From NCBI GenBank assembly GCA_037927135.1, contig JAXSPP010000001.1, forward strand, positions 192,001-256,000: a DNA stretch of 64,000 nt. The letters are read 5' to 3'. The stretch comes from Candidatus Pampinifervens sinense. GTDB lineage: Bacteria > Aquificota > Aquificia > Aquificales > Aquificaceae. This document shows positions 3,706 to 56,961 of this stretch, in pieces (within the stretch, counting starts at the first letter, position 1; each line of letters opens with the position of its first letter). Under the pieces are notes generated by a model. The model did not search any database. It was not told where the DNA came from and saw only the letters and a list, made by a program, of their open reading frames with translations. The translations under genes and the position numbers were made by a program.

Positions 3706-7543
<3,838 letters not shown>

Positions 7544-47388: not shown

Positions 47389-47730
47389 TTACTCTTCCTT
47401 TTCCTTTTCTTCCCTCTTGTAGCCTGGCTGGTAGTGGGATATGGCCTCTTTGGTAAAGGTTATCCTCGTGTTGGCATCCACTTTGAGAGTGACAGTCTCA
47501 TCCCCTATCTCTACCACCGTGCCCCATATGCCACCGCTGGTGACCACCCTGTCTCCCTTCTTTAAGTTCTTCAAAAACTCCTGATGCCTTTTCCTCACCT
47601 TCACCTGTGGCCTTATAAGCAAGAAGTAAAACAGGACAAAGAGTAGGATGAGGAAGATAAACTGAAAAAGTAGGGCTTCTACAGCATTTGAACCATGTCC
47701 TGTCTGCTGTGCAAAGGCTATGTCTATCAT
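47389..47730 (-). CDS. yajC: Preprotein translocase subunit YajC
   Basis: FYFLLIRPQ and LKKGDRVVTSGGIWG. Confidence 0.95.
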   Translation of the reverse strand: MIDIAFAQQTGHGSNAVEALLFQFIFLILLFVLFYFLLIRPQVKVRKRHQEFLKNLKKGDRVVTSGGIWGTVVEIGDETVTLKVDANTRITFTKEAISHYQPGYKREEKEKEE

Positions 47731-47787
47731 GGTGTTTAATTATAACATTAACCCACGTAGAAGTAGAATGCTAAATAAAATACTAAT

Positions 47788-50700
47788 ATGGGGATGGAAA
47801 TAAAAAAGGGAAGTGTCCTTAGGGGGCCTTTTTGGTCTGAGCCTGTAGAGGTTATTTATACGGAGGACCAAGGTAATTATGTGTTAATTATCACAAAAGG
47901 TAAGAATACGGGCGGAATTGATAACAGATTAATTCCTAAGGATGAATTGCCTAAGGTGGAAGTTATAGGTGGTGAATTAAGCTTTTCTGAAGAGACGTGG
48001 AAGGTATTTCTTGCCCTTGAAACCATACGGTATAGGTATGCCTCTGTGTATGACCCTCTGTTGGCTGTAAATGTATCAAAGATTGACCCACTTCCACACC
48101 AAATAGAGGCTGTGTATGGTTATGTTCTTAAACTTCCAAGGATAAGGTTTATGATAGCGGATGACCCTGGTGCTGGGAAGACCATTATGGCCGGCTTAAT
48201 CATAAAGGAGCTAAAGCTTCGCCATCTTATAAAGAGAATTTTGATTGTGGTGCCCGGACATCTCAGAGATCAGTGGCAGAGGGAGCTTTCTGAAAAATTT
48301 GACGAGCATTTTGAGATAGTGGATAGAGGGAGGTTTAATTCCAACTTTGGTATAAACCCCTGGCAAAAGTATTCTCAAATCATCACTTCCATGGACTTTG
48401 CCAAAAAGAAAGAAGTGCTTGAATCTTTGGAAGATGCTGATTTTGACCTTGTTATAGTGGATGAGGCTCACAAGATGAGCGCTTATAGGTATGGCAATAA
48501 AACGGAAAAGACTGACAGATATAAGCTTGGAGAAGTGCTTTCCAAAATAAGCAACCACCTGCTTTTCCTTACAGCCACGCCACACAAGGGAGACCCGGAG
48601 AATTTCAGATTACTTCTTGACCTGCTTGAACGGGGCTTTTTTGCAAACGAGGAGATTATGAGGGAGGCAATACAGAGTGGAAACAATCCTTTGTTTATAA
48701 GAAGGTTAAAGGAGGACCTAAAGGATTTTGAGGGTAGGCCCTTGTTCCTACCAAGGCGTGTTAATACAGTTCCTTTAGAACTTAGCGATAGGGAGATGGA
48801 GCTTTATAATGAGCTTTCAAGGTATGTAAAAAGCCAGTATGATAAGGCTATAAAAAGAGACAGAAGGAGGAATGTGGCCTTTGCCCTTGTTATTTTGCAA
48901 AGAAGGTTCTCTTCCAGTGTTTATGCTTTGCTTGAGTCTTTGAAAAGAAGGAAAAAAAGACTTGAAGAGCTTAAAAGCAGTGCATACCAACAAAGAGAGC
49001 CTGAAGAGGTCATTAACTTTGAAGAAGTGGAGGATATGTCCGAGAGTGAGAGGTGGGCCGAAGAGATCAAATGGGAAACCATAACCCTTTCTGAAAATAT
49101 GAAGGAGTTGGAGGAAGAGATAAGGACGGTGGACGAGCTTATAAGGAGGGCCGAGGATATATTAAGGAATGAAGAAGAGACAAAGCTTAAGGAGCTTAAA
49201 GAGACGCTTCTTGGACTTAAAGAGGAGTTTAAAGATTTCAAAATTATCATATTTACAGAGTCAAAGGATACGCTTGAATACTTGAATGAAAAGGTAAAAA
49301 GCTGGGGTTTTTCAACGGTTATCATCCATGGGGGTATGAATCTATACGAAAGGATAGACGCGGAGAAAAGGTTTAAGAATGAGGCAGAGGTTTTGATAGC
49401 TACAGAGGCGGCTGGAGAGGGTATAAATCTTCAGTTTTGCAATCTTATGATTAACTATGACCTACCATGGAATCCAAACAGGCTTGAGCAAAGGATGGGA
49501 AGGATACATCGCTACGGACAGCAAAGGGAGGTGCATATATACAATCTTGTGGCAAGAAGAACCAGGGAAGGAAAAGTTCTTTACAATCTCCTTGAAAAGC
49601 TTAATAAGATAAGGGAAGCACTTGGTAGTGATAAGGTTTTTGATGTGATAGGGGAGATTTTGCTTAATAAAAACCTTTCACAGCTTTTGGTGGAGGCTGC
49701 TGTGAACGCAAGGGATATGGATGAGATTCTGAAGGAGATTGATATAAAGGTTGATGAGGAGTATATAAACAGAATAAAGGAGAGCTTGGGGGAGGCTCTT
49801 GCCACAAGACATATTGACTTGACAAGGATAAGGGAGCTGGCACAAAAGGCCAAGGAAGAGCGCCTAATTCCAGAATATACGGAAAACTACTTTAAGAAGG
49901 CTTTTGAGAAGGCTGGTGGAAAGATAAGGGAACGCAAGGATGGTTTTTTGAGTGTGGAAAGCATTCCACTGGATATAAGACGGGTTGCCGAGGAGGAGGA
50001 ATTTAAAAGGAGCTTTGGACAGCTTCAGAGCAAATATCCTAAGATCACCTTTGATAAGGAGAAGGCCTTTAGAACGCCCGATGCGGAGTTTGTATCCTTT
50101 GGGCATCCACTTTTTGAAGCTGTTATGAGGTGGGTAGAAAAGCATTTAAGGGATAGTCTTTTGAAGGGTGCGGTATTTTTTGACCCAGATGGGAGGCTGG
50201 ACGGTTATATGCTTTTTTATGAGGGTGAGGTGAGGGACGGAACGGGGTCCATAGTAGGCAAAAGGCTTTTTGCTTTTTATGATGATGGAAGGAAGGTGGT
50301 GGAAGTTTCTCCTGCTATCTTGTGGGACCTGGCGGAAGGTTTTACTACAGAAAAGGAAGCTGTGAATATGGAGGAGTTAAGGAAAAGGGTGGAAGATGTT
50401 GTTATTAAAGGGCTTGAAAGATATAAGGAGGAGCTTTTAAAGGAAAGGCTAAGGCAGGTGGAGATAAAAGAAAGGTATGGTGTTAAATCCTTGGAATATT
50501 TGATCTATCAATTGGATGGGGAGATTTTGGACCTTTATGGAAAAAAGGATAAGGGCGAGGATGTGGATAAGATGATAAACAGAAAAAGGGAGAAAAAGCA
50601 CGAGTATGAAAGGGGTTTGGAGGAGCTAAAAGAAAGATTGGAAAGGGAAAAGGCCCTGTCTCTTTCTCCACCAAACTTTTTGGGAGTCATAAGGATAAAG

Positions 50701-51114
50701 CCTATGAGGGAAAGGATTGGTGTGGAAGGTGATCCGGAAGTGGAAGCCGTAGGTATGAAGGTGGCTATGGAGTATGAGATAAGGGAAGGTAGAAGACCGG
50801 AGGATGTTTCTTCTCAAAACCTTGGCTTTGATATAAGGTCTGTGGATAGGGATGGAAGGGTGAGGTATATTGAAGTGAAGGCAAGGGCTGGTGTGGGAGA
50901 GGTGGCTTTAACTCAAAACGAGTGGTTTAAGGCCCAAAGGCTGAAGGATGATTACTACCTTTATGTGGTCTTTAATGCAGTAAGTTCTCCACGGCTTATC
51001 ATAATCCAAAACCCCGCAGAGAGGTTAAAACCCCAAGAGAAGGTGGAGGTGGTAAGATATATTGTGGATGAGAGGGAAATTTTGAAGTATGTGGGAGGAA
51101 AGGATGAGCCATAG
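47788..51114 (+). CDS. SNF2-family helicase with C-terminal DUF3883 (PD-(D/E)XK-like) nuclease domain
   Basis: [24 protein letters not shown] and [16 protein letters not shown]-terminal GFDIRS...YIEVKAR...LTQNE. Confidence 0.9.
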
Positions 51115-52705
51115 GCGCTTTATAGAGGAGTCTTTTCCTGTAAAGGAGGTCGGTCAAGAGTCCGCAAGGGAGAAAAACATACGCCATGGACATATTTCTA
51201 CCCTTCATATTTGGTGGGCAAGGAGGCCCTTGGCAGCTTCCAGAGCCACCATATACGCAAGCCTTATACCCGCACCAAAGGATGAGCTGGAACGCAACAA
51301 CCGGCTTGCCTTTATTATAGACCTTTGTAAGTGGGAGAATTCTTTAAACAGGACCATTATAGAGAAGGCGAGGAGGGATATTCTTGCCTCTAATGGAGGA
51401 AGGCCCCCGAGAGTTCTGGACCCCTTTGGAGGAGGTGGTTCCATACCCCTTGAAGCCTTGCGCCTTGGCTGTGAAGTCTATTCGGGTGATTATAATCCTG
51501 TGGCCGTTTTGATACAAAAATGCACCCTTGAATACCCTCAAAAGTATGGAAAGCCGGGAGAGGTAGAGATAGAGGTGGAAGAGTTTGGTAAGAAGGTAAG
51601 GAGAAAGGTAAGGGTTGAGAATGTGCTATTGGAGGATGTAAAAAGATGGGGGGAGTGGGTTTTGGAGCTTGCAAAAGAGGAAATAGGTAGGTTCTATCCG
51701 GCAGAGGAGGATGGTTCTATACCGGTTGGATACCTTTGGGCAAGGACTATACCCTGCCAAAACCCTAACTGTGGAGCGGAAATTCCTTTGATGAGACAAT
51801 ACTGGCTGGCAAAGAAGGATAAGAAGAAAGTAGCCCTATACCCCTATAAGGAGGGCAATAAGGTGCTTTTTAAAATAGTGGGAGATGGATATGAGCCTAT
51901 GCCAAAGGATTTTGACCCAGAGGAAGGCACCATTTCAAGGGCTGTGGCGGTATGTCCTGTGTGTGGTTCTGCTATTGATGACAAAGATGTGAGAAAGCTA
52001 TTTCAAGAGGGAAAGGCGGGTCAAAGGATGGTGGCAGTGGTTTTGCATCATCCAAACAAAGAAGGAAAAAGCTACAGGCTGGCAACGGAGAAAGACTTGG
52101 ATGTTTTTAAAGAGGCAGAAAAATACCTTGAGGAGAAAAGGAAAAAGCTTATGGAAGAATGGGGAATAGACCCTGTGCCGGATGAACCGTTGCCGCCAAA
52201 GGAGACTCTTGGTTTCCGTGTTCAAAGATACGGTATGCTCAAATGGGGCGACCTTTTTAATTCTCGCCAAAAATTGGCTTTGATTACCTTTACGGAAAAG
52301 GTAAGGCTGGCTTACAAAAGAATGGTTGAAGAAGGCTATGATGAAGAATATGCAAAGGCAGTGGTGAGTTATTTGGCGTTGGGAGTGGATAGGTTGGCGG
52401 ACTATAACTCAATTCTGTGTGTTTGGGCTGTGGCAGGAGAATTTGTGGCACACACTTTTGGGCGACAGGCTCTTCCTATGATATGGGACTATTTTGAGCT
52501 TTGTCCTTGGAGTGGATCAACAGGAGACTGGAACTCAGCTATGGATTGGATTTTGAGAGTTTTAGAACACACTTCTCGCATCAATTCAATCACCCACTTT
52601 TCCACCCCACCTTTACCCAATGAAGAAGATGAGGAAGAAGATAAATCAAAGAACTTGATAAAAGCAGGTGGTCTATATATGAAACTAATAGAGGAAGGGC
52701 TATGA
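51104..52705 (+). CDS. DUF1156 DNA methyltransferase, N-terminal part (SAM-binding motif, Zn finger)
   Basis: [35 protein letters not shown]...CPVC and LFNSRQ. Confidence 0.88.
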
Positions 52706-53931
52706 AAAGCTTACACATTCCAGTCATCACCCAATTCTCCGCCACCTCTCTACCCTATCCAGACAACTACTTTGATGCAGTCATTACAGACCCACCTTAT
52801 TATGATAATGTGAATTATGCAGAGCTTTCTGACTTCTTTTATGTATGGCTAAAAAGAAGTATTGGAGATTTATATCCTGAACTATTTTCCACTCCACTCA
52901 CTCCAAAATCTCAAGAGATTGTAGCAAATCCTATTAGACATGAAAGACAAGATAGAGCAAAAAAATTCTTTGAAGATATGCTTAAAAAAGCCTTTCAAGA
53001 GATACACCGAGTTTTAAAGCCCTATGGCATTGCGGTAATTGTATATGCCCATAAATCTACGGAGGGATGGGAAACGCTTATAAACTCTCTTTTGGATTCT
53101 GGCTTGGTTATAACGGGCGCATGGCCCATAAATACGGAGATGCAGGCAAGGTTAAATGCTAAGGAGACGGCTTCTCTTTCATCATCCATCTACATAGTTG
53201 CCAGAAAGATGGAGCGCGAGCCTATTGGTATGTATAATGAGGTTAAGCATCAATTGAAAGAGCATTTGAATAGAAGGCTTGAAAGGTTATGGCAGGAGGG
53301 GATAGGTGGGGCTGACTTTTTTATATCGGCCATTGGTTCCGCCATAGAGGTCTTTGGAAAGTATGAAAAGGTTATGGACTATGAGGGCAAGCTTATACGG
53401 GCGGATAGGCTGTTGGAAGATGTGAGGAAGATAGTCACAGACTTTGTCATAAGGCAAATACTCCACAATGGTTTTTCTGGGGAGATCTCCGAGCTTACCA
53501 TGTTTTATGTGCTATACAGGTGGAACTACGGTGAGGCAAAGGTGCCTTTTGATGAGGCAAGAAAGCTTGCCACCAGTTGTGGTATAGACCTTGCCACCCA
53601 TTGGAACAAAAATAGCTTTATAAAAAAGGAGAAGGAATTTATAAAGGTGCTGGGGCCACAGGACAGGAAGATGGAAGAGCTTGAGGGTTCTACGGAGCTT
53701 GTTGATGTTTTGCATCTTGTCCTTTTGTTGTGGGAGAAGGGAAGAAGGGACGAGATGATCAGGGTGCTAAGGGAGACGGGCTTTGGAGATAGGGAGGTTT
53801 TTTACAGGGTGGCCCAAGCCATATCTGAAACATTACCGCAGGAGAGTAAAGAGAAAAAGCTTCTTGACGGCTTTTTGGTTGGAAGAGAAAGATTAAAAGA
53901 AGAGATTAGAAAGCAAGGGAGGTTGTTCTGA
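52702..53931 (+). CDS. DUF1156 DNA methyltransferase, C-terminal part (DPPY catalytic motif)
   Basis: [30 protein letters not shown] and WPINTE; ATGA overlap with the upstream part. Confidence 0.88.
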
Positions 53932-56486
53932 TGAGGCCCTTTCATACCATAGCCATACCACACAAAGACATCCTTGAAGGAAGGCTTGAGCAGGATGTTT
54001 TTGCTGCAGACCTATACGAGGTAAGTCAAGGTAGGGGCCCAGAAGAGTATAAGGACCCAGACATCTTTTTCCAAAGGACCTACCTTACGGAGGGACTAAG
54101 GAACCTTTTGAGCATGGTGGAGAGAAGATTAAAAGGCGAAGGCGGGGACCATATTATTCAGATTCAAACACCCTTTGGAGGTGGAAAAACCCACAGCCTT
54201 ATAGCCCTCTATCACAAGGCAAGGGAATGGAAAGCCAAGCCTGTGGTAATAGTAGGAACTGTTTTGGGACCGCGGGATACTCTGTGGGGAGCCTTGGAAA
54301 GGGGACTAACGGGTCAAAACACAAGGCTTACTGGCTATACTTCACCGGGTAGAGAGGCCATAAGGGAACTTCTCTTAAGCCATGAGCCTGTGCTTATTCT
54401 TATGGATGAAGTGCTTGAGTATGCGGTAAAGGCTGCCGGTCAAAGGGTGGGTGATAGCACCCTTTACGCCCAAAGCCTTGCCTTTATGCAGGAGCTTACA
54501 GAAGCGGTAAAAACCTTGGATAAAGTTTGTCTTGTGATAACTCTTCCATCCAGCCTTTTGGAACACTACGATGAGAACGCAGAAAGGTTTTATAATCAAC
54601 TTCAGAAGGTAATAGGAAGGGTAGAAAAGGTATATACACCAGTGCAAGAAGGAGAAATAGCCAAGGTTATAAAAAGGAGGCTTTTTAGCCATATTGACGA
54701 AGAGGAAGCTAAGAAGATAGTTCAGATGTTTGTGGATTATGCCCAAAAGGAAAATATACTTCCCGCGGGTATGGAGCCAAGCGAATACAGAGACAAATTT
54801 CTTGATTCCTATCCTTTTATGCCAGAGGTTTTGGATGTTCTATATCATCGTTGGGGGAGCATTCATACCTTTCAAAGAACGAGGGGTGTCTTAAGGCTTT
54901 TGTCCTTGGTCGTATATTCTTTAAAAGACAAAAACATACCCTATATCAGCCTTGCGGATTTTGACCTTTCAAACCAAGAGCTACGCCAAGAGCTTATAAA
55001 ACACATAGGAAATGAGTATAACAGCATATTGGACCAAGATATTACTGGCCATTCTGCTGGTGCCAAAAGGGTGGATAGGTCCTTGGGGAATGCCTATCAA
55101 GGTTTGAAGCTTGGAACAAGGTCTGCAAGGGTTATATTCCTTTATTCCTTTTCCAGTGGTCAGTCAAAGGGTGCTACCTTGGGAGAGATAAAAAGGTCTG
55201 CCACCACAATGAACAACCCAGCCAGCGCCGTGGTAGAAGCGGTAGAACAGCTAAAAAATAACCTCTTCTATTTACAAGCTACGGAGGATAGATACTTCTT
55301 TTCCAACATTCCTAACCTAAACAGAATATTGCTTACCAAAATGGAGAATGTAAAGGATGAGGATATAGAAAAGCTGGAAAGCGAACTGCTAAGAGGTAGA
55401 TTAAAGGGAGAAAAGCTAAAGGTATATATTTGGGTGGAGAACTCTGTCAATATTCCGGATACAGAAGACCTAAAGCTTGTAGTTTTGAGGAAAGATGATA
55501 GAAGTTTGATTGACAGTATATTAAAGAACAAGGGGTCCTCTCCGCGCATAAACAGGAATACTCTGTTCTTCCTTGTGCCTATGGAGGGGGAGAGAAATAA
55601 CTTTGAGAGAGAGGCAAGAAAAAGGATAGCTTATCAATCTATTGAAAAGGACAAGAGCCTAAACCTAAGGGAAGAACAGAAAAAGGATTTAAAGGACAAA
55701 CTAAGTAAAACGGAGGAAGTTCTTAAGGAGCTTATAAGGAAGTTATACAGGATGGTCCTTATACCCTCTAAGGATGGGGTCAAAGAGCTGGACCTTGGAG
55801 TGCCAACTTATGGGGACTCAAGGGGTATTGATGAGGAGATATATGATGCGCTAAAGACGGAAAATGAAATCATTGAAAGGCTTGACCCTTTGGTGATAAG
55901 GGAAAAGTATCTTAGGGATAATGATTTCCTTTATACGGGTAAGCTTTATGAGGCTTTCCTTAGGACGCCGGGAGAGCCAAGGCCTGTAGATAAAGAGGTT
56001 ATAGAAAGGTCCATATCTGAGGGAGTGGCCAAGGGGCTGTTTGGGCTTGGAGAGATGCTTGAGGATGGAAGGGTGGAATGCAGGTATTTTAAAGAGAGTG
56101 CGTCAGTCTATTTTTCTGAAAGAGAGGTTATTGTAAGGGCAGAGCTTTGTAAAAAGGAAGAGGAGGAAGGGGAGATAGGTTGTAGAATACCAGTAGGATC
56201 GCCGGATGTAAAAATAGATAATAAACCAGTAGAAACTATAAAACAGCCTGTAGGTAGTGCATTACTTGAAAAAAAAGCTATAAGTGGGCTTTCTTTGAGC
56301 TTTGTAATTCCAAGGGGTAAGTTGTCGGATGTGATGGGTGTGTTGAGGCTTTTAAGCGAGAGGTTTCAAAGGATTGAGTTTGAGCTTAGGGCGGTTGAGG
56401 GAGAAATATCTGAGAATGAGATAGAGGAAAGGATAAAAGAGGCCTTTAACCAGATGAAGATTGAGGTTAATATCACTCCACACTAA
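53931..56486 (+). CDS. DUF499 AAA+ ATPase
   Basis: FAADL, QTPFGGGKTHSL (Walker A), ILMDE (Walker B), SYPFMPE and FQRTRGVLRLL. Confidence 0.9.
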   Translation: MRPFHTIAIPHKDILEGRLEQDVFAADLYEVSQGRGPEEYKDPDIFFQRTYLTEGLRNLLSMVERRLKGEGGDHIIQIQTPFGGGKTHSLIALYHKAREWKAKPVVIVGTVLGPRDTLWGALERGLTGQNTRLTGYTSPGREAIRELLLSHEPVLILMDEVLEYAVKAAGQRVGDSTLYAQSLAFMQELTEAVKTLDKVCLVITLPSSLLEHYDENAERFYNQLQKVIGRVEKVYTPVQEGEIAKVIKRRLFSHIDEEEAKKIVQMFVDYAQKENILPAGMEPSEYRDKFLDSYPFMPEVLDVLYHRWGSIHTFQRTRGVLRLLSLVVYSLKDKNIPYISLADFDLSNQELRQELIKHIGNEYNSILDQDITGHSAGAKRVDRSLGNAYQGLKLGTRSARVIFLYSFSSGQSKGATLGEIKRSATTMNNPASAVVEAVEQLKNNLFYLQATEDRYFFSNIPNLNRILLTKMENVKDEDIEKLESELLRGRLKGEKLKVYIWVENSVNIPDTEDLKLVVLRKDDRSLIDSILKNKGSSPRINRNTLFFLVPMEGERNNFEREARKRIAYQSIEKDKSLNLREEQKKDLKDKLSKTEEVLKELIRKLYRMVLIPSKDGVKELDLGVPTYGDSRGIDEEIYDALKTENEIIERLDPLVIREKYLRDNDFLYTGKLYEAFLRTPGEPRPVDKEVIERSISEGVAKGLFGLGEMLEDGRVECRYFKESASVYFSEREVIVRAELCKKEEEEGEIGCRIPVGSPDVKIDNKPVETIKQPVGSALLEKKAISGLSLSFVIPRGKLSDVMGVLRLLSERFQRIEFELRAVEGEISENEIEERIKEAFNQMKIEVNITPH

Positions 56487-56961
56487 ACTTTACAGGCCTT
56501 CCCTCTTGGTCTCTTATCTCAAAAAGTAGGCCACAGCCTTCCCTATCTTCTCCCACCCTGCCTAAGGGCTGGCTTTTCTTTACCCACTCACCCCTTTTTA
56601 CCAATAGGCTACCAGCCTTTGCATAAACGTAGACAAATCTTTCATCGCTTTCTACCATAACCACCCAGCCGTAGTTTTTAATATCGTTTCCCGCATACAG
56701 AACTTTGCCCTCGCCCACGGACCTAAAATACTCTCCGCAGGCTGTGTTTATATAGTAGCCCCTATCTGTGGGCATAGCCTTTCCCTTTACTGGCAAAGGA
56801 ACCTTAAGGGCTTCCGCTGGTGGCTGATAGGTTCTCTGTGGAGCTTCCACCCTTCTTTGTGGCCTTTGCACCTCCCTTTTTGGCGTTTTGTCCCTTATCT
56901 CTATATGCACTATGCCACAGCCACTAAGGAATATAAGAGATAGGGCTATCAAAGGCTTCAT
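56473..56961 (-). CDS. Lipoprotein with degenerate M23 (NlpD-like) domain
   Basis: Lipobox LSGC; GKVLYAG, YG-x-[11 protein letters not shown] and LLFEIR; no catalytic His motifs. Confidence 0.78.

Follow-up and report, generated by a model that had tools for sequence, protein, structure and literature searches.

A divided hmaB methylase gene in the Hma operon of Candidatus Pampinifervens sinense, with its two products modelled as one enzyme

Results

Two overlapping reading frames correspond to hmaB

The window analyzed here is a stretch of 64,000 nucleotides from Candidatus Pampinifervens sinense (Aquificaceae; assembly GCA_037927135.1, contig JAXSPP010000001.1, positions 192,001 to 256,000 of the forward strand), and all positions are those of the window unless a locus is named. 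Two overlapping reading frames on its plus strand, ORF1 and ORF2, are by their profile matches the two pieces of hmaB, the N6-adenine methylase gene in a defence operon of the Hma (type-1 BREX-related) kind. ORF1 (51089..52705) encodes the N-half, 538 amino acids, or 533 if translation starts at the ATG at 51104, the start of most relatives; its start is the same as in the homologues P0123 and P0196 and in the genome G015. It comprises the DUF1156 helical domain, motif I, core strands 1 and 2, the target recognition domain (TRD) insert, a relic of strand 3 and a tail. ORF2 (52702..53931, 409 amino acids) encodes the C-half, with core strand 3, motif IV, the remaining methylase core and the C-terminal helical domains. 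ORF1 matches Pfam DUF1156 (1.5e-24) and positions 6-552 of the 973 positions of the PADLOC HmaB profile PDLC00661 (4e-90), and ORF2 matches positions 571-849 of 973 of the HmaB profile (3.1e-54). Since these segments abut, ORF1 and ORF2 are consecutive parts of one known protein, a DUF1156-type N6-adenine methylase in two pieces. In Pfam, ORF2 scored 27.7 bits with Methyltransf_11 (cut-off 21.2) and 18.7 bits, under the cut-off of 26.7, with N6_N4_Mtase.

The motif pair of N6-adenine methyltransferases, an FxGxG-like motif I and a (D/N)PP(Y/F) motif IV, is present with one motif on each chain, as the sequence-only reading of this DNA had proposed. The S-adenosylmethionine (SAM) binding motif DPFGGGGS occupies residues 111-118 of ORF1 (51419..51442, plus strand), and its D111, F113 and G115-G117 are invariant across 16 N-halves. 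The catalytic DPPY occupies residues 30-33 of ORF2 (52789..52800, plus strand) and is invariant across 27 C-halves. The two frames overlap by ATGA, with a Shine-Dalgarno-like GAGGAAGGG at 52691..52699 (plus strand) before the ORF2 start. A promoter and terminator scan found no site between ORF1 and ORF2. Two weak terminator-like hairpins at 52236-52278 inside ORF1 carry no weight, as such sites numbered 5, compared with 10.3 in shuffles. A programmed frameshift fusing the two frames was considered and rejected: no slippery heptamer was seen by eye in the last ORF1 codons, and the product would hold both copies of strand 3. The genome contains a single hmaB N-half and a single C-half.

The flanking genes complete the operon. 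Upstream and overlapping ORF1 is hmaA (47788..51114, plus strand; 1108 amino acids), which encodes an SNF2 helicase with a C-terminal NOV_C (PD-(D/E)xK) nuclease (PADLOC HmaA 3.8e-207; Pfam Helicase_C 2.1e-27, SNF2-rel_dom 2.9e-14 and NOV_C 2.3e-24). Downstream, adjoining ORF2, is hmaC (53931..56486, plus strand; 851 amino acids), which encodes a DUF499 ATPase of the AAA+/STAND type (PADLOC HmaC 5.1e-137, Pfam DUF499 2.1e-41). All hma genes lie on one strand and abut or overlap.

Core strand 3 is duplicated at the break

A direct repeat marks the break, and its coordinates, identity, spacing, frames and collapse product were confirmed as first described. Copy 1, a degenerate relic of core strand 3 near the end of ORF1 (52589..52618, plus strand), and copy 2, the working core strand 3 at the start of ORF2 (52726..52755, plus strand), are identical at 23 of 30 positions (77%), both in frame, with starts 137 nt apart. 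The match extends to 28/38, and its longest exact run is 8 nt. No other pair of at least 23/30 exists within the 2.8-kb hmaB region, and no further notable repeat was found in 51000-54000. Codon shuffling (n = 300) produced a pair of at least 23/30 somewhere in the gene in 13 cases and within 300 nt in 2. In tblastn comparisons, residues ~493-515 of ORF1 and ~2-18 of ORF2 aligned to the same stretch of fused homologues, and in many loci (e.g., L033, L034, L053 and L132) the alignments of the two frames overlapped by 32-59 nt. Because both ends align to one homologue stretch, the repeat is a real duplication of the segment that forms core strand 3, immediately ahead of DPPY. Within copy 2, S13 and L17 are invariant over the 27 C-halves, and A14 and T15 nearly so. 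Deletion of one copy and the spacer would leave an open frame of 896 amino acids from the ATG at 51104, or 901 from 51089. The collapse joint (52588>52726) was found in none of the contigs of four runs, a result that is uninformative either way as contigs drop rare variants.

The break is genuine and occurs in other samples

The junction of the window genome (G000) was compared with contigs from X2 and X3, sequencing runs from studies other than its possible source. A 407-nt X2 contig (52347-52753) and a 508-nt X3 contig (52347-52854) cross it with 0 differences. Since contigs of two other studies bridge the junction unchanged, misassembly is excluded as the cause of the split. The region 52200-53300 was represented by at least 0.81 of its sampled words in 14 DNA runs from about ten studies, and the runs containing the sequence are mostly hot-spring metagenomes. 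A 229-nt metatranscriptome contig, from a library that may contain DNA, spans 52640-52867, including the ORF1 stop and the ORF2 start.

Relatives divided at the same site were found in all three surveys. The phylum survey covered 178 genomes and found matches in 14 of them, at 16 places: nine are split at the same site (G000, G005, G059, G047 twice, G096, G094, G092 and G097), four are fused (G015, G088 and G113 twice), one is degenerate (G068) and two are too cut to judge. The best 80 of 604 species-genome matches comprised 72 fused, 2 split, 2 odd and 4 cut cases. The metagenomes gave 551 matches, and in the best 80 of them the gene was fused in 53 and split in 19, with 6 cut and 2 odd cases. 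One of these loci, L156, first classed as "other", was reassigned manually to the split group on the evidence of 937 bp that hold two cargo genes. From these counts, the split is the minority form overall, yet it is common in thermophile samples.

The start of ORF2 is shared with 20 or more stand-alone C-halves. Among 27 fetched C-halves, which come from different 90% clusters and in some cases from contigs longer than 100 kb, 25 of the stand-alone proteins (407-430 amino acids) have a short N-terminal leader, typically MK.LHIP.V, ahead of the conserved strand-3 block; P0038 begins at the block itself, and P0009 is without the IP motif. The initial proposal that the split is maintained, and is neither a frameshift nor an assembly error, is borne out by these shared starts and by the bridged junction. 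By sequence comparison, the split is a family trait at one site and no lone accident.

Two further loci show other arrangements. L138 (5294-14826) is another split without cargo; 163 bp separate its halves, and its genes run in the order hmaB, hmaC, hmaA. In L021 (G068, 5172-7078), an hmaA fragment (residues 5-261) directly adjoins an hmaB C-half, and the rest of hmaA and the entire N-half are missing.

The two chains are predicted to form one methylase

The suggestion of a heterodimeric methyltransferase gained support from structure modelling. The complex model of ORF1 and ORF2 reached an ipSAE of 0.94 in all three runs, while the best of three controls reached 0.29. The runs agreed in at least 92% of contacts, and the pLDDT (predicted local distance difference test) of the partner was at least 79. 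In the model, ORF1 residues 108-111 (strand 1) lie against ORF2 residues 24-29 (FDAVIT, strand 4), and ORF1 residue 131, in the strand-2 region, contacts ORF2 residue 8, inside the interface stretch 4-14 taken as strand 3. The relic and tail of ORF1 (501-538) lie outside the interface. The Rossmann sheet would thus be rebuilt with ORF2's own strand 3. Folded alone, ORF1 had a mean pLDDT of 61.6, with values below 50 at residues 107-138 (strands 1 and 2) and 499-527 (relic and tail). The methylase fold itself is well known. A profile search of solved structures gave 0 matches for the C-half and one weak match for the N-half (1ws6_A, E 0.0009, 54 residues). With no solved relative by sequence, memory of a like complex is an unlikely cause of the passing score. 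According to the model, the two pieces probably still work together.

The suggested comparison of substitution rates in both halves was made on other split pairs. Distant split pairs showed constraint in both halves (pN 0.21-0.25 versus pS 0.68-0.85). In the pair G096/G094, dN/dS was 0.12 for the C-half. L115 was left out of the comparison, having a stop at codon 23 of its C-half and a short N-half frame. The N-half of G096/G094 is taken up in the Discussion.

The break lies in a variable linker with an additional ORF1 tail

In these methylases, the TRD insert comes after core strand 2 (PMC12839542), which places the break between the end of the TRD insert and strand 3. It is precisely at this linker that fused proteins show differing lengths and sequences, as one expects for what would be an exposed surface linker. 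The majority of fused forms read ...HCSQ...PATVTQSSAT, and a minority read ...HLSQIPPVE, followed by 3-10 variable residues and IIPxVxQxSAT. Within a split-rich clade, the fused L145, L030, L177, L117 and L174 have ...IPPVE, a short linker and (K)LIPxVxQ, and resemble split genes re-joined after cargo loss.

Ordinary split N-halves end in ...IPPVE(A/V)EE followed by a stop. ORF1 continues past this point with the relic, which is collinear with G015's IPATVIQFSATELP, and then with a 28-codon tail (an acidic run and 20 more residues) and the stop codon (52619..52705, plus strand). The N-half clusters P0196 (18 members) and P0197, 86% identical to ORF1, have the relic FSTSPLP and NEESEEEDE (...NFSTSPLPNEESEEEDE) and then stop, 20 residues before the end of ORF1. 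The degraded locus L061 has a similar duplication (IPKNTQSSATSLFYPDDYFD ahead of EEEE-stop) around an MNT-HepT pair. At the cargo junctions of L022, L024, L025 and L026, local alignment for flanking repeats gave no match longer than 16 nt. As these four other split loci are without a long flanking match, the long duplication is particular to the G000 lineage and L061.

The ORF1 tail may derive from the 3' end of a cargo gene since lost. Comparison of the spacer and tail (52619-52761) with the 110 nt upstream of 13 C-half starts revealed similarity only after the ATG and at the purine-rich ribosome site. Searches with the tail and the C-terminal region showed the tail only in near-identical ORF1 relatives; a near-identical protein from the C-terminal search is labelled Aquificaceae. 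The 3' end of HepT from G005 was tried as the source of the junction and rejected, its alignment with the G000 junction being unconvincing.

Other split loci carry cargo between the halves

The split site of the window holds no cargo, and most of the split relatives carry genes there, of diverse kinds. MNT alone lies between the halves in L115 and L118, with a broken copy in L147, and MNT with HepT or HEPN in G005/L003, L130, L134, L150, L157, L061 and L063; Pfam confirmed MNT, with or without HepT/HEPN, in eight loci. The cargo of L133 consists of several PIN and ribbon-helix-helix genes. In G059 (L022, 3597-8250), a 4.8-kb cargo includes a DarT-Macro fusion (one 390-amino-acid protein), MazE and pieces of AAA_15/AAA_21. 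It also encodes three unknown proteins, of 173, 168 and 162 amino acids, that recur in both G047 hmaB copies. This locus also has a PIN gene between hmaA and the hmaB N-half.

In G092, G094, G096, L156, L159, L160 and L167 the cargo is on the opposite strand, where between one and five genes in tandem encode coiled-coil membrane proteins that have a hydrophobic segment at the C-terminus. These proteins, which matched no Pfam family other than coiled-coil noise, have 110-230 amino acids, begin with MARAIDLELLQLLEDKLGKE and occur in one genus and several metagenome contigs; examples on the minus strand are L024 3803-5899, L025 1806-3719, L026 2415-2954 and L167 4615-6940.

The flanking hma genes are intact in L118, L157, L167 and L134, and L118, L157 and L167 are full operons with cargo. 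Cargo on the same strand is packed closely. In L118, L150 and L061 there is an overlap between the N-half stop and the MNT start, and the stop of the last cargo gene overlaps the C-half ATG in L003, L118, L130, L150, L061 and L157, an arrangement identical to that of ORF1 and ORF2. By comparison of these loci, the linker between the TRD and strand 3 is apparently a recurrent insertion place, mostly for toxin-antitoxin-like pairs. Relatives with cargo at the exact site, together with the relic and acidic end of P0196 and P0197, also favour the insertion with duplication that had been suggested.

A central patch distinguishes the operon from that of a sister genome

The block 47688..56493 (plus strand) is identical in G000 and G015 save for one patch and two single differences. 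The patch (52307..53175, plus strand; ~0.87 kb, defined by blastn and mismatch positions) is the sole part of the operon that differs; its edges are dense in mismatches, and 52377-52731 is unalignable to G015, whose hmaB is fused (900 amino acids). There are 0 differences in 47688-52306 and 2 in 53176-56493, and the chromosomal flanks are ~5-6% different (left flank, 189 differences over 3.0 kb; right flank, 162 over 3.4 kb). These figures point to what would be a very recent, operon-precise exchange between species. The whole hma operon and the upstream 100 bp match those of G015, which belongs to a different species of this genus and has the operon at the same position in the chromosome. A micro-patch at 53156-53175 has 8 differences in 20 nt relative to G015 (LNAKETAS versus LRAKESAT) within identical sequence.

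One X2 contig has G015-type sequence until 52732 and then the shared sequence, and another has the G015-type micro-patch at the same eight positions. X2 therefore carries both types, and split and fused alleles occur in one community. The fused allele of G015 and X2 is not the collapse product of the repeat, because its sequence upstream of the join differs. The search for fused alleles in metagenomes that had been advised did find one, a different allele of the whole patch.

A tree was built from 83 C-halves with the junction excluded, after dropping L040 and L115 (internal stops), rows below 55% identity, and rows with incomplete coverage or cut by contig ends. G000 and G015 are sisters (support 100) within a clade whose rows are fused in 38 cases and split in 2. 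Over the whole tree, the gene passes from one state to the other 10 times, at least four of them on well-supported branches, compared with 19.5 times in shuffles. At the 5' end of the C-half, the G000 patch is nearest to split (L118, 83%) and fused (L031, 87% over 97 residues) alleles, and the remaining C-half is nearest to fused alleles only. This pattern is compatible with a split-type patch having moved into a fused backbone, without proving that direction. The possibility raised at the outset, that the site serves for swapping halves, holds to the extent that a central patch was exchanged in an otherwise identical operon; whole halves were not exchanged, and the genome of the window has one N-half and one C-half.

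Mosaic variation was also seen around the break in other homologues. In the C-half, at ORF2 residues ~35-100 (window 52800-53010; homologues P0003-P0121), the allele classes are NVNYAEL with IVANPxRxG, NVPYSYL with IVAYSxxEGGF or IVAYTNERSW, and NNVPYADL with EMxxWDxxRY. These classes co-vary and are shuffled among otherwise similar proteins, and from sequence they could be a determinant of specificity or of resistance to an inhibitor. A variable patch of the N-half (P0124 versus P0001, residues ~350-395; PTPEGKGRGAERAFSVRNYGLNTY in one form) recurs in unrelated N-halves; the TRD region is therefore mosaic too.

Discussion

We propose that hmaB has been cut in the linker between the TRD and strand 3, that the window shows an empty-site form of this split, and that the two chains assemble into one predicted methylase. 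We give this reading a probability of about two in three. An insertion after the strand-3 codons would have introduced an acidic end that closes with a stop, then cargo, then a fresh Met-Lys start that has a strand 3 of its own, and the strand-3 relic left in ORF1 would then have drifted. Later, in the G000 lineage, the cargo would have been deleted and the acidic run fused, in frame, with the final codons of the sequence that had stood before the C-half, so that the 30-bp repeat would be the footprint of both insertion and cargo loss. In the present state, ORF1 and ORF2 would be co-transcribed and translationally coupled through the ATGA overlap. ORF1 would contribute strands 1 and 2 and the SAM site, and ORF2 strand 3, DPPY and strands 4-7, to a single Rossmann-fold methylase.

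Several points weigh against this proposal. The ipSAE expresses the confidence of a model. Its mark is reached by 116 of 157 solved complexes and by 2 of 215 mismatched pairs, but our own alignments were used, so these counts hold roughly. The N-half of G096/G094, which contains the mosaic, has a dN/dS of 0.475, and the dN/dS pairs compare lineages that were possibly fused for part of their history. Selection on the G000 allele itself is unmeasurable because this split allele and the fused allele of G015 differ only in the patch. With regard to origin, the site would be the scar of a split-with-cargo state, in which the loss of the cargo is a step we infer: the ORF1 tail matched no cargo 3' end, a short-protein search with ORF1 residues 499-538 (E <= 10) gave as its sole match a contig-cut fragment of the same ORF1, and 52612-52705 has no second copy in the genome (the next match has E 0.019 over 30 nt). 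Some split loci are decaying, as seen in L115 (the stop at C-half codon 23), G092 (frameshift), L061 (fragmentary) and G068 (truncated), and splitting can accompany decay. The role of the methylase is unsettled as well; in PMC11232893, HmaB of Halomonas gave T4 no measurable protection from HmaA.

A different account is that a broken patch very recently recombined into a working fused gene, leaving inactive pieces and an operon heading to decay. The identity of the operon with that of G015 outside the patch would make the event recent and so untested by selection, decay has overtaken the loci just named, and ORF1 carries a useless relic and tail. Yet both frames are intact, the same allele is present in 14 DNA runs of about ten studies with the junction unchanged in X2 and X3, homologues that are split, in complete operons, have endured with a pN well under their pS, and the complex model passes its controls. 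In addition, a dead methylase beside an intact HmaA should be costly if the system restricts unmethylated DNA. For these reasons we regard a fresh pseudogene as unlikely, although it deserves to be kept in mind. It is also conceivable that the two pieces function and that the split persists for the division it creates: ORF1, with the TRD, would handle specificity and SAM binding, and ORF2 catalysis, so that assembly could be regulated or specificity altered by replacing one part. The TRD insert does fall in ORF1, since it follows core strand 2 (PMC12839542), discrete alleles form a mosaic around the break, several of them in one community, and the split or fused state changes at least four times on well-supported branches of the C-half tree. 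Against such a division of labour, a cell with one N-half and one C-half has nothing to swap, most family members are fused, and the mosaic is found in fused genes too; we consider it quite doubtful.

Two explanations are much harder to sustain. The repeat was suspected to act as a genetic switch, in which recombination between its copies removes 137 bp and restores the 896-amino-acid fused methylase, turning it on or off. Collapse would be in frame, and fused and split alleles do occur together in X2, but the long exact repeats of phase-variable methylases are absent: the copies are 77% alike, at 23/30, and share at most 8 exact bases in a row, and the fused allele of G015 and X2 differs upstream of the join. 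The switch is thus very improbable. As for chance similarity or an assembly error, 13 of the 300 codon shuffles gave an equally good pair somewhere in the gene, but only two did so within 300 nt, the two copies match a single homologue segment in alignment, and independent contigs bridge the junction, which leaves this explanation with next to no credit. The proposal of an empty-site split with two assembling chains accordingly remains the one we favour.

Hma and other BREX-related systems are widespread. The three components of the Hma or type-1 DUF499-centred BREX-related system are all found in the operon of the window, where helicase-nuclease, DUF1156 methylase and DUF499 ATPase follow one another in the same order. 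HmaB is one protein in the system as published, whereas it is in two chains in the window. HmaA has been reported as a nickase defending against T4, and phage protection was shown for HmaA of Halomonas (PMC11232893). No split DUF1156 methylase was found in the literature searched; the main text of PMC12839542 is without the words split, fission, fragmented or disrupted, and its supplements may show split forms.

Two-chain enzymes have precedents. M.AquI and M.EcoHK31I are natural two-polypeptide C5-cytosine methyltransferases, cut in or near the variable region. As modelled here, hmaB resembles them in that one fold would be made by two chains from adjacent or overlapping genes. It differs in being an N6-adenine enzyme, cut between Rossmann strands 2 and 3 after an insert of ~400 residues. 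The nrdA gene of phage Aeh1 is split by mobE, and its halves reassemble. There too inserted DNA cuts the gene of an essential enzyme, of which neither piece has been lost; unlike Aeh1 nrdA, the hmaB loci showed no homing endonuclease, and their cargo is toxin-antitoxin-like and varies by locus.

Embedded genes in defence operons are familiar as well, an example being PrrC, embedded in the EcoprrI type I locus. Septu and other defence genes are described as embedded in hma operons in PMC11232893, and PMC12839542 describes HEPN/MNT "auxiliary and backup effectors" in BREX and BR operons. The kinds of cargo (MNT-HEPN, PIN, ATPases) in a methylase-containing operon are the same in our loci. However, in those cases the embedded cargo lies between genes, whereas the cargo of the hmaB relatives lies inside the methylase gene at one linker, leaving two working frames; the window is without cargo.

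A broader idea, which we offer tentatively and think rather less probable than its contrary, is that the HmaB linker is a gene-internal docking site. Toxin-antitoxin and abortive-infection cassettes would enter, swap and leave through recombination in the conserved methylase sequence that flanks them. The methylase would serve its cargo as an addiction clamp: with both halves required to shield the host DNA from HmaA, a cell losing the cargo imprecisely would die. Loci would then cycle through fused, split-with-cargo and split-empty states with strand-3 scars. The fused proteins of the form ...IPPVE-linker-IIPxVxQ in a split-rich clade, which look as if re-joined, fit such a cycle. So does the window, empty and with a fused sister in G015 in an otherwise identical operon.

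The two-piece HmaB would mark a place where the enzyme tolerates a cut, with the SAM and TRD part apart from the catalytic part, which may be useful for biochemistry and specificity swaps. G000 and G015 form a natural experiment, with operons alike save for a fused or split patch of ~0.87 kb and both alleles in one hot-spring community. The wider pattern, if true, would add a new place to defence islands, one methylase-internal linker that repeatedly hosts MNT-HepT, PIN, DarT and other cassettes, and it suggests a functional tie between the methylase and the embedded abortive-infection modules.

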